DNA from: Escherichia phage vB_EcoM_G10400
Strand: one strand, 5' to 3'
Length of the DNA stretch: 64,000 nt
Sequence record: MK327937.1
Shown here: piece after piece, positions 11,887 to 14,839 of the stretch
Numbering within the stretch: the first letter of the stretch is position 1
How the letters are laid out: each line of letters begins with the position of its first letter
Program-made: the position numbers and the translations under genes
Notes under the pieces: model-generated
Seen by the model: only the letters and a program-made list of their open reading frames with translations
Databases searched by the model: none
What the model was told of the DNA's origin: nothing

Positions 11887-13305
11887 TTATGGATAGGTAT
11901 AGATGATACCAGTTTCTAAAGCAGTTTTATGAATGATGTATCCATTGCGTGATTCTTGAACATCAACTTCTGGATAGTCTTTCATCATCTTCTGAAGAGT
12001 GTAACGATGCAGGTAGTATTTACTGTCTGGATCTTCAGTTTTCCAATCTTTACCTTCTTCGGTCATTTTTTGGATTTCATCCATAACCCACCAACCGCAC
12101 CAGATATAAGCTGAAGTACGATGTGGAAGAGGATGAACATAAGGTAATTCACCTTCTGGCTCTGGAGCAACTTTATCAGTTACCTGAACTTGACCTTCCG
12201 CCGTAATAGTTTTGCTATCATAATCAGTTGCAGTAACGACAGCAGTAACTTCAATAGTTTGACTTCCAATAGATGAGGTATCAACGGTATATACATTAGT
12301 TGACCCTTCTACAGGAGAAGAATCTTTCTTCCATGAATACGCAATTTGCGCTTCTTCTGGAGCATCAGTGACATTAGCAGTAAATGTAGCCGAAGCATCT
12401 TGTTGAACGTTAATAGAAGGAGGAGTCAATGTAACCTGTGGATTCATTGTCTTCTTATTAACTGTTAATGATACTTCATTCGAAGTAACTTCCTTTTCAT
12501 TGTAATTTTCAGCAGTTACTTGGGCTACGCATTTAATTCTTTTTACTCCACTTGTAGTAGGAGTATAGCTAAATGTAGCGTTAGTTGCTTCACCCACAGG
12601 AGAATCATCTACATACCACTGATACGTAGCAGATGCCCCATCAGGTTGAGAAGCTAAGGCAGCAGTAAATTCAACGGCTGTTCCAATCACTCCAGCTGGA
12701 GGACTATCAGGAGTTACTGCCAAGGTAGTCGTCTGCGTCTTTTTATTAACAGTCAATGATACTTCATTAGAAGTAACGCTTAGTGCATCATAATCTGCCG
12801 CAGTTACTTGAGCTACACACTTGATTTTTTTAACTCCGCTTGTGTCAGGAGTGTAATTGAATGTAGCGTCAGTTGCTTCGTCTACAGGAGAACCGTCAAC
12901 GTGCCATTGATACGTAGCGTTTGCACCTGATGGCTGTGAAGCTAAGGCAGCGGTAAATTCAATTGGAGTTCCAATCACTCCAGCATCAGGGCTACCAGGA
13001 GTTACAGCTAAAGTAGTTGTTTGTGTCTTATTTTGAACTGTGATAGTTGTACTAATTTCTGCTGTTTCAGGTTCAGATTCTGCAACTTGATTGGTTGCAA
13101 CTACTTTAATAGTCTTTTGACCGGCAGGTCCTTTTAGTACATAACTAAAAGTTGCTGACGTTTCTTCCTGTGGAGCGTCGTCTACAGTCCAAGCATATGT
13201 AATAGGTCCATCTCCAGTTTGACCACTGGGTGTAGCAGTAAACTGCTGAGTCTGATCTATAACTCCAGTAGGTGTTTTAGGAGTTATATCAACTGTAAAA
13301 GCCAT
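11887..13305 (-). CDS. hoc: Highly immunogenic outer capsid protein with an extra tandem Ig-like domain
   Basis: 472-aa ORF; N-terminal Ig-like repeats and conserved C-terminal capsid-binding region (..WCGWWVMDEIQK..); residues 93-188 and 189-284 are a diverged tandem repeat. Confidence 0.9.
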   Translation of the reverse strand: MAFTVDITPKTPTGVIDQTQQFTATPSGQTGDGPITYAWTVDDAPQEETSATFSYVLKGPAGQKTIKVVATNQVAESEPETAEISTTITVQNKTQTTTLAVTPGSPDAGVIGTPIEFTAALASQPSGANATYQWHVDGSPVDEATDATFNYTPDTSGVKKIKCVAQVTAADYDALSVTSNEVSLTVNKKTQTTTLAVTPDSPPAGVIGTAVEFTAALASQPDGASATYQWYVDDSPVGEATNATFSYTPTTSGVKRIKCVAQVTAENYNEKEVTSNEVSLTVNKKTMNPQVTLTPPSINVQQDASATFTANVTDAPEEAQIAYSWKKDSSPVEGSTNVYTVDTSSIGSQTIEVTAVVTATDYDSKTITAEGQVQVTDKVAPEPEGELPYVHPLPHRTSAYIWCGWWVMDEIQKMTEEGKDWKTEDPDSKYYLHRYTLQKMMKDYPEVDVQESRNGYIIHKTALETGIIYTYP

Positions 13306-13314
13306 AAGTTATCC

Positions 13315-13995
13315 TTATTTTAATGTTACGAAAGAAGAATTACGTGTTTCACGAATTAGAACTGATCCGTCACGATTAATGTAGTAAATTAAGCTAAATA
13401 AAGTTTGGTGTGCCGACGCATGTTCAAAACTAGTTGGGTGAGATTTCCAATCTGGGGTTTCAGCAATCCATTGATAAATCCACCAAGGAACAGTGCAGAA
13501 TCCTGGATTTTTTCCAATCAGCTGAAGATTCGGACTAAAGTTTTCCGGAAGAGTAAATACAGACGGCTTTTCGGATTCAATAATCTCAGCTACAGCCTGT
13601 TCGAATTTTTCTTCAACAAAAGGAGTATCTTCAATTAAAACAGTGGTATTTTCAGGAATTTTATCCGTTTCTACTACTTCAATTTTAATGTCAGATTTAA
13701 CCGGAGAATCAATCAGAAGTGCTGCCTCTGGATTGACTTCTTCATCGTCATATTTTAATCCGTCTGCGGCATCAGCAGCATCAATTAAGTCTTTAATAGA
13801 TAACCCATCAGTCTCTGGCATAGGTTCACTAGCGAGCTTCTGGAGAGCTTCTTCAATATCATTAACGATATTATCAAAAGATTTATTCTTTTTGACCTTT
13901 ATACCAAACTGTTCAGCATATTCAGCTAATTTAGCTTTAGCTTCTTTATTATCATCAAGAGCCTTCAGCTCTGCAATATAATCTTTATCTATCAT
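13315..13995 (-). CDS. inh: Inhibitor of prohead protease
   Basis: 226-aa ORF, size and position match T4 inh. Confidence 0.85.
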   Translation of the reverse strand: MIDKDYIAELKALDDNKEAKAKLAEYAEQFGIKVKKNKSFDNIVNDIEEALQKLASEPMPETDGLSIKDLIDAADAADGLKYDDEEVNPEAALLIDSPVKSDIKIEVVETDKIPENTTVLIEDTPFVEEKFEQAVAEIIESEKPSVFTLPENFSPNLQLIGKNPGFCTVPWWIYQWIAETPDWKSHPTSFEHASAHQTLFSLIYYINRDGSVLIRETRNSSFVTLK

Positions 13996-14017
13996 AATAT
14001 TTCCTCAGTATAAATAT
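13963..14017. repeat. 55-bp exact direct repeat, copy 1 (probable assembler k-mer overlap)
   Basis: Identical to 14140-14194; directly abuts the adapter sequence. Confidence 0.9.
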
Positions 14018-14194
<177 letters not shown>

Positions 14195-14221: not shown

Positions 14222-14839
14222 ATGTACCACTTTGTATATGAAACAACAAATCTAATAAATGGTAAAAAGTATATAGGAAAACACTCTACTGATGACTTGA
14301 ATGATGGTTACCTTGGTTCCGGTAAGGCAATTCAGCAGGCTATAAAGAAATATGGTGAAAACAATTTCTCTAGAACAATACTAAAAGAGTTTAAAACTTC
14401 CGAAGAAGCGTACATGTATGAAGAAGAAATTATAACTCCTGAAATAATAAAAAGCAAAAATTATTATAATATGAAACCTGGTGGAATTGGTGGAATTGTT
14501 ATGACTACAGAGGTTATAGCAAAGATGAAAGAATCTTCCGCTAAGAGATTTGAAAACTCACCGGGCACGGTATTAGGTACAACTTGTTACACTAATGGAA
14601 CTAAAAATATTTTTATTAAACCTGGAGAACTTGTTCCAGAAGGATTTGTAAAAGGAATGGTTCATCCTAATAGAAAGTCCAGAAAAGGATGTAAAGTCAA
14701 ACCGACTACCACAGGAACTTTTTGGGTCAATAACGGTGCAATAAATAAATTAATACAACCAGACGGTATTATTCCCGACGGATTTATTAAAGGTCGTCTC
14801 ATGAAAAGAGATTCTAAAGGCAAATTTAGTAAGGCATAA
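14222..14839 (+). CDS. segD: GIY-YIG homing endonuclease (Seg family)
   Basis: 205-aa ORF with N-terminal GIY-YIG-type motif (YHFVYETTNLINGKKYIGKHS); position between inh and uvsW as T4 segD. Confidence 0.8.
   Translation: MYHFVYETTNLINGKKYIGKHSTDDLNDGYLGSGKAIQQAIKKYGENNFSRTILKEFKTSEEAYMYEEEIITPEIIKSKNYYNMKPGGIGGIVMTTEVIAKMKESSAKRFENSPGTVLGTTCYTNGTKNIFIKPGELVPEGFVKGMVHPNRKSRKGCKVKPTTTGTFWVNNGAINKLIQPDGIIPDGFIKGRLMKRDSKGKFSKA

Follow-up and report, generated by a model that had tools for sequence, protein, structure and literature searches.

Hoc of phage T4 is a 180-Å fibre built from three Ig-like domains and an anchor, and 155 copies are present per capsid (PMC10385173). Its homologues carry strings of Ig-like domains that range from one or two to ten (PMC10385173), and the Hoc-like protein of Klebsiella phage PMBT63, 468 aa long, has four of them (PMC13435897). 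That the number of Ig-like domains in Hoc varies among T4-like phages has already been published in general terms (PMC10385173, PMC11150434). Hoc adheres weakly to mucin glycans, and its binding sites differ among phages (PMC11150434, PMC11853027, PMC9271167). In PNJ-6 Hoc, MUC2 binding was mapped by co-IP to D1, residues E29 and G33, and D2 showed no binding (PMC11150434); in PNJ-9 Hoc, residues S183, L184 and T185 of D2 bind MUC2, and S-L-T is reported as a MUC2/fucose contact (PMC11853027); in T4 Hoc, a change in D3 alters glycan binding (PMC9271167).

We examined the hoc gene in a 64,000-nucleotide stretch of DNA (the window) from Escherichia phage vB_EcoM_G10400 (MK327937.1), for which a first-pass annotation had described a diverged in-frame tandem duplication adding one Ig-like domain to Hoc. 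The 472-aa product is Hoc, the highly immunogenic outer capsid (head decoration) protein, with a phmmer E-value of 1.9e-212 against the T4 Hoc chains in the PDB and with Pfam matches to PKD, PKD_4, Ig_2 and Ig_3. A 100% identical 472-aa protein is already deposited under the name 'PKD domain protein [Escherichia phage vB_EcoM_G10400]' (P0009 in our protein search). The order of genes near inh, segE and uvsW follows the T4 layout: an inh-like ORF lies directly upstream of hoc on the same strand, a segE-like GIY-YIG ORF occupies the position of T4 segE, and relatives carry the annotations inh, homing endonuclease and helicase. The phmmer match to T4 Hoc came as two stretches with query residues 126-200 left out between them, the second aligning residues 201-472 with T4 Hoc 105-376 (E 4e-158). 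The T4 reference protein (NP_049793; gene at NC_000866 110187..111317) is indeed 376 aa long, as the first-pass annotation had given it, and the alignment to it that the annotation had proposed places T4 one unit short: apart from one clean gap of 96 aa, MAFFT aligned the two proteins without indels, at 87% identity. Coordinates are collected in Table 1.

Table 1. Parts of hoc and neighbouring features in the window; residue numbers are those of the 472-aa Hoc unless T4 is named
Feature	Position	Strand	Basis or remark
hoc CDS	11887..13305	(-)	472 codons + stop; ORF list
Ig-like domain 1, residues 1-92	13030..13305	(-)	aligns with T4 Hoc 1-92; AlphaFold2 (AF2) beta strands 4-91
Repeat unit 1 (u1), residues 93-188, A-type D2 Ig/PKD-like domain	12742..13029	(-)	unit absent from T4; AF2 strands 98-187
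Repeat unit 2 (u2), residues 189-284, B-type D2 Ig/PKD-like domain	12454..12741	(-)	counterpart of T4 D2; Pfam PKD 195-267; AF2 strands 194-283
Ig-like domain 3 (T4 numbering), fourth Ig-like domain here, residues 285-378	12172..12453	(-)	Pfam Ig_3/I-set 289-373; T4 alignment; AF2 strands 290-376
C-terminal capsid-binding domain, residues 379-472	11890..12171	(-)	near-identical to T4 Hoc 283-376
inh-like ORF	13315..13995	(-)	directly upstream of hoc
55-nt direct repeat, first copy	13963..14017		overlaps 5' end of inh
Nextera adapter	14018..14083	(+)	reads CTGTCTCTTATACACATCTCCGAGCCCACGAGAC-CGTACTAG-ATCTCGTATGCCGTCTTCTGCTTG
Poly(A)	14084..14139		56 nt, right after the adapter
55-nt direct repeat, second copy	14140..14194		identical to the first copy
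GIY-YIG ORF, segE-like	14222..14839	(+)	205 aa; at position of T4 segE

The repeat itself was as described. Tandem Repeats Finder reported a period of 288, with 2.0 copies, 78% matches and a score of 715, at 12449..13029, and the 12454..13029 interval of the first-pass annotation corresponds exactly to codons 93-284. The two 96-aa units are adjacent, both begin with KTQTTTLAVTP and end with SNEVSLTVNK, and the estimate of roughly 80% identity agrees with a gap-free comparison in which 77/96 amino acids (80.2%) and 222/288 nt (77.1%) are the same. They lie head-to-tail, in frame and with no spacer, and are of equal length. When hoc was compared with itself at in-frame offsets of 30-897 nt, offset 288 alone gave 222/288, the next best offset giving 124/288, so that the expected 288-bp periodicity emerged from both methods; the binomial chance of at least 222/288 is ~8e-73. 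Identity between u1 and u2 is 80%, versus 40-42% between these units and D1 and D3 of the same Hoc. The 66 nucleotide differences between the units include 41 at third codon positions, and the differing codons comprise 31 that are synonymous and 19 that are not, with dS 1.0, dN 0.135 and dN/dS 0.13. The longest exact run that the units share is 17 nt. Both D2 copies are under purifying selection, with neither decaying, and both unit types are conserved across many phages.

An AlphaFold2 model of Hoc, built on 34 Hoc sequences (mean pLDDT 91.5, pTM 0.54), contains four beta-sandwich domains, with the strands listed in Table 1, followed by an alpha/beta C-terminal domain. Residues 93, 189 and 285, where the units begin or end, lie in inter-domain linkers of the model. 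The best Foldseek matches in the PDB are four-Ig fragments (Sidekick Ig1-4, Dscam1 Ig1-4 and ICAM-5 D1-D4, E ~1e-13), and the modelled C-terminal domain superposes on the cryo-EM C-terminal domain of T4 Hoc (8t1x_X) with a TM-score of 0.93, an rmsd of 1.3 Å and 98% identity. Full-length Foldseek TM-scores are low (0.15-0.3), as inter-domain angles differ, and we relied on E-values, aligned lengths and the C-terminal match. Together with the pTM of 0.54, the low global TM-scores make the relative orientation of the domains uncertain, and any gain in fibre length is accordingly an estimate. The model thus predicts four Ig-like domains in a row on a T4-type capsid anchor, in line with the architecture that the first-pass annotation had expected.

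The two-unit gene is common among related phages. A megablast search of the phage genome collection with hoc returned 678 matching records. Counting records that were '100% covered' as two-unit genes was tried and rejected, since a one-unit gene aligns its single unit twice, as two pieces; alleles were counted instead from the span on the record and the number of pieces in 60 evenly spaced records. This sample held 19 one-piece matches of ~1419 nt (89-97% identity), 31 two-piece matches of ~1131 nt and 2 three-unit genes, the rest being partial or distant. By this count, about one in three related phage records has the two-unit, 1419-nt allele. At the protein level, the 120 cluster representatives among the matches listed included 81 of 376 aa, 28 of 472 aa and 8 of 568/570 aa; there are many clusters of 472-aa proteins, some with 58-167 member sequences. 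The two-unit allele is already known: it is widespread and deposited, and is not a new feature.

Longer alleles also occur. A tblastn search with the 568-aa form found 19 records in which hoc matched in one piece of ~1704 nt, covering at least 99% of the query, and these included phages slur03, slur08 and slur14. The annotated Hoc of slur03 (LN881728.1, our locus L011, 867..2861) is 664 aa long, with four 96-aa D2 units and six Ig-like domains, and the same holds for slur08 and slur14. The number of D2 units in hoc therefore spans 1 to 4 among related phages, and in the wider Hoc family the representatives are 185-1195 aa long. Among the alleles compared, the 664-aa Hoc of the three slur phages was the longest seen in Tequatrovirus.

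Several records deserve separate mention. The RefSeq genomes of T6 (NC_054907.1) and T2 (NC_054931.1) split hoc into two annotated CDSs, suggesting that the gene is frameshifted or disrupted; in T2 the match is also ~14 nt shorter. The 32-kb record MG010123.1, 'Staphylococcus phage SAJK-IND', contains a hoc that is 94.8% identical to the gene of this E. coli phage, and because of this identity the Staphylococcus-labelled record is probably mislabelled or contaminated. The taxonomy line 'Rosemountvirus' of the HP3 RefSeq record NC_041919.1 looks inconsistent with its T4-like genome.

Across the 120 representatives, units grouped by their position in the protein and not by the phage that carries them, both in class-mean distances and in a neighbour-joining tree with short internal branches and no bootstrap. 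The first units of two- and three-unit Hocs clustered with most single units, and later units clustered together. Sites 48, 51, 52, 54 and 55 of the unit are diagnostic: they read P-E-A-S-A in 76/80 single units; P-E-A occupies sites 48, 51 and 52 in 27/28 first units, 18 of which have the full P-E-A-S-A; and 25/28 second units read Q-G-E-N-S, Q-G-E-N-A or L-G-E-T-T. The C-terminal motif of the unit is polymorphic within both classes.

At the DNA level, we compared nine hoc genes, those of the window, T4, HP3, wV7, G28, UGKSEcP1, slur03, D5505 and Shf125875. Matrices of identity and dS separated three types of unit. Type A comprises the first units and the single units of D5505 and Shf125875, with dS of 0.01-0.7 within the type and of 0.01-0.55 between u1 of the window and type-A units. 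Type B comprises the second units of multi-unit genes other than HP3, the third unit of slur03 and the single unit of T4, with a within-type dS of 0.17-0.85, or 0.17-0.39 if slur03 u2 is set aside. To type C belong HP3 u2 and the final units of UGKSEcP1 and slur03. Between types A and B, dS reaches 0.7-1.6, whereas the D3 and C-terminal part of hoc differs between the same phages by a dS of 0.09-0.44. Because a between-type dS of ~1.0 far exceeds that of the flanking hoc sequence, the split between unit types long predates the divergence of the hoc alleles compared. The multi-unit state of hoc, too, looks old.

The single D2 of T4 falls on one side of this split. It shares 253/288 nt with u2 of the window (dS 0.28) versus 230/288 with u1 (dS 0.81), so the domain that is extra relative to T4 is the one formed by residues 93-188. 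Among one-unit representatives, 78/80 are A-type and 2/80 B-type; T4 (L001 1688..2818) is B-type. As the single-unit genes fall into two kinds that do not correspond to each other, loss from an array is the simplest origin for at least one of them, and since the T4 domain is of the second-unit type while D5505 and Shf125875 carry the first-unit type, T4 is probably a loss form, its kind of single unit being the rarer one. The first-pass annotation spoke of a duplication adding a domain. That this Hoc has one more Ig-like domain than T4 stands; the direction of change is probably wrong, as the one D2 of T4 matches u2. More distant Hocs (P0122, P0124 and others) give no polarity of gain or loss, as their D2 regions lie equally far, ~30-32%, from u1 and u2. 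The T4 domain is closer to u1 in the last 48 nt alone (45/48 versus 38/48). A chimera of u1 (N-terminal) and u2 (C-terminal) formed by unequal crossover was considered for T4 D2 and rejected, as T4 is B-like over nt 97-240.

Our main reading, to which we assign a probability of roughly 90%, is that hoc of the window is an ordinary two-unit Tequatrovirus allele in which D2 is doubled head-to-tail and the two units belong to two old, position-specific types. The doubling is in phase with the domain boundaries, giving four Ig-like domains plus the anchor, versus three plus the anchor in T4. Alleles of one to four units would most likely have arisen by unequal homologous recombination between units, combined with exchange between co-infecting phages.

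The alternative that survives best concerns how such an array was put together. Diverged single-unit alleles of types A and B may have been joined by unequal or illegitimate recombination in co-infecting phages, in which case the divergence of the units would be older than the tandem arrangement. T4-like phages recombine freely, both types do occur as single units, and hoc is visibly a mosaic: the window and UGKSEcP1 have the same u1 in DNA but are 8% apart in u2, and at diagnostic sites 48, 51 and 52 the window u2 has the residues typical of type A. However, such a joining requires that two deeply diverged single-unit alleles were kept independently while the rest of hoc stood at a dS of 0.1-0.4, and by itself it leaves type C, found as the last unit of three- and four-unit alleles and as HP3 u2, unexplained. 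We regard this origin as unlikely, though with a real share of the probability; the present data do not separate it from an old duplication followed by losses.

Far less probable is a recent, lineage-specific duplication of a T4-type D2 that diverged later, so that the allele would be the T4 form with a domain newly added. In favour of this scenario, the reference phage T4 carries a single unit and one-unit alleles are in the majority. But u1 is 98-100% identical in DNA to u1 of HP3 and UGKSEcP1, and u2 matches T4 D2 and the second units of G28, UGKSEcP1 and wV7 at 88-92% DNA identity, while u1 and u2 of the same gene, at 77% identity and a dS of ~1.0, differ by 2-10 times the flanking divergence between phages, which places their split before the diversification of the phages. 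A very slim chance is all that we would leave to this scenario.

The weakest alternative, that the second copy is a false repeat expansion produced by short-read assembly, is hardly credible: a clear assembly artefact ~1 kb away in the same contig means that the quality of the assembly is not beyond doubt, but with 66/288 nt differing and shared exact runs so short, reads could not be confused between the copies, the frame is intact with differences concentrated at third codon positions, and the 1419-nt architecture recurs in one piece in 19/60 independent records and in many independent protein clusters. The first-pass annotation had likewise argued for an evolved duplication and against a collapsed-repeat assembly error, and the same divergence between the copies upholds that view.

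The nearby artefact lies between inh and the segE-like gene, where the window contains CTGTCTCTTATACACATCTCCGAGCCCACGAGAC, CGTACTAG and ATCTCGTATGCCGTCTTCTGCTTG in succession, an untrimmed Illumina Nextera read-through adapter with CGTACTAG as its i7 index. Poly(A) follows immediately, and a perfect 55-nt direct repeat brackets the adapter and the poly(A) (Table 1). Over the interval that takes up 1595 nt in the window, the closest relatives (99.9% identity) have 1418 nt, exactly 177 nt less. This 177-nt stretch of adapter, poly(A) and duplication is an assembly artefact and is to be removed, and the adapter should alert users to data quality in this assembly. We also noted a late-promoter-like motif, TATAAATA, a short way upstream of the GIY-YIG ORF and inside the 55-nt duplication.

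As to the function of the doubled domain, we infer, solely from the near-identical anchor domain, that Hoc of this phage is a non-essential monomeric fibre, dispensable for growth, with one monomer per gp23* hexamer centre. The C-terminal domain would be expected to sit centrally on every hexamer of the major capsid protein, with the N-terminal string of Ig-like domains projecting outward from the capsid. Scaled from the 180 Å and four domains of T4 Hoc, the extra domain would lengthen the fibre by ~4-5 nm. It would also present a second D2 surface, including a second S-L-T motif, since u1 carries one at residues 183-185 and u2 another at 279-281. By analogy, its conservation could mark a putative mucin/fucose contact in the window Hoc, and either the added length or the doubled surface could modulate the reach and avidity with which the phage weakly adheres to mucus glycans or to other surfaces. 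Given that D2 of PNJ-6 did not bind, the second D2 may also be a mere spacer.

These observations are compatible with a broader history, which we put forward tentatively, at a little short of even odds. Tequatrovirus hoc would be a ladder of 1-4 D2 units of at least three anciently diverged types (A, B and C) in a fixed order; T4 would be a secondary loss that kept B, most one-unit phages having kept A; and fibre length and D2 valency would be tunable under niche selection, mucosal or environmental. Literature searches found no paper explicitly on the Tequatrovirus 472-aa allele, on the 1-4-unit ladder or on the non-equivalence of T4 D2, and an earlier description is possible. For those who use Hoc in phage display or as a vaccine scaffold, or who compare T4-like therapeutic phages for mucus adhesion, it matters that natural alleles carry 1-4 D2 units. 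The ladder offers ready variants, differing mainly in unit number, with which the effects of fibre length and valency on adhesion could be probed. Because D2 of T4 is not the counterpart of D2 in most other 376-aa Hocs, residue numbering and the labels 'domain 2' and 'domain 3' are not transferable between phages.

Compared with known systems, the locus is closest to other Tequatrovirus alleles. The 472-aa Hocs of vB_EcoM_G10400, teqsoen, HP3, ime09, phiD1, G28, wV7 and others have the same length and the same two-unit architecture, and are annotated as 'Hoc-like head decoration' (RefSeq), 'PKD domain protein' or 'capsid and scaffold protein'; the others differ from the window solely by allelic changes and by mosaic patches within units, at 89-97% DNA identity. 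The 568-aa Hocs (UGKSEcP1, YUEEL01, EC101 and others) and the 664-aa Hocs of slur03, slur08 and slur14 share the 96-aa unit and the flanking domains, but have one and two further units than the window, respectively, including type C as the last unit. T4 Hoc (NP_049793; PDB 5vf3, 8t1x and 8t9r) lies in the same place beside inh and has the same C-terminal fold (1.3 Å), but has one D2 unit where the window has two, its unit being of the B-type and 88% identical in nucleotides to u2.

Beyond Tequatrovirus, the modular principle recurs with other domains. P0122, a 468-aa Hoc of the Klebsiella-phage type that we liken to the PMBT63 protein by length and description alone, has four Ig-like domains and a homologous anchor, with a C-terminal domain 82% identical to ours. 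Its tandem repeat, however, is a D3-like domain (residues 188-281 and 282-375, 74/94 identical), which is 54-57% identical to D3 of the window, not to D2. The duplication in P0122 is thus independent and of another domain, which indicates that Ig-domain duplication has recurred and that four-Ig Hocs arose at least twice. PNJ-9 Hoc, which is without D3 (PMC11853027), follows the same modular principle with a different domain count, and Hoc of Serratia phage Muldoon, with 10 Ig domains (PMC10385173), combines the same modular anchor with a variable number of Ig domains at much lower identity.
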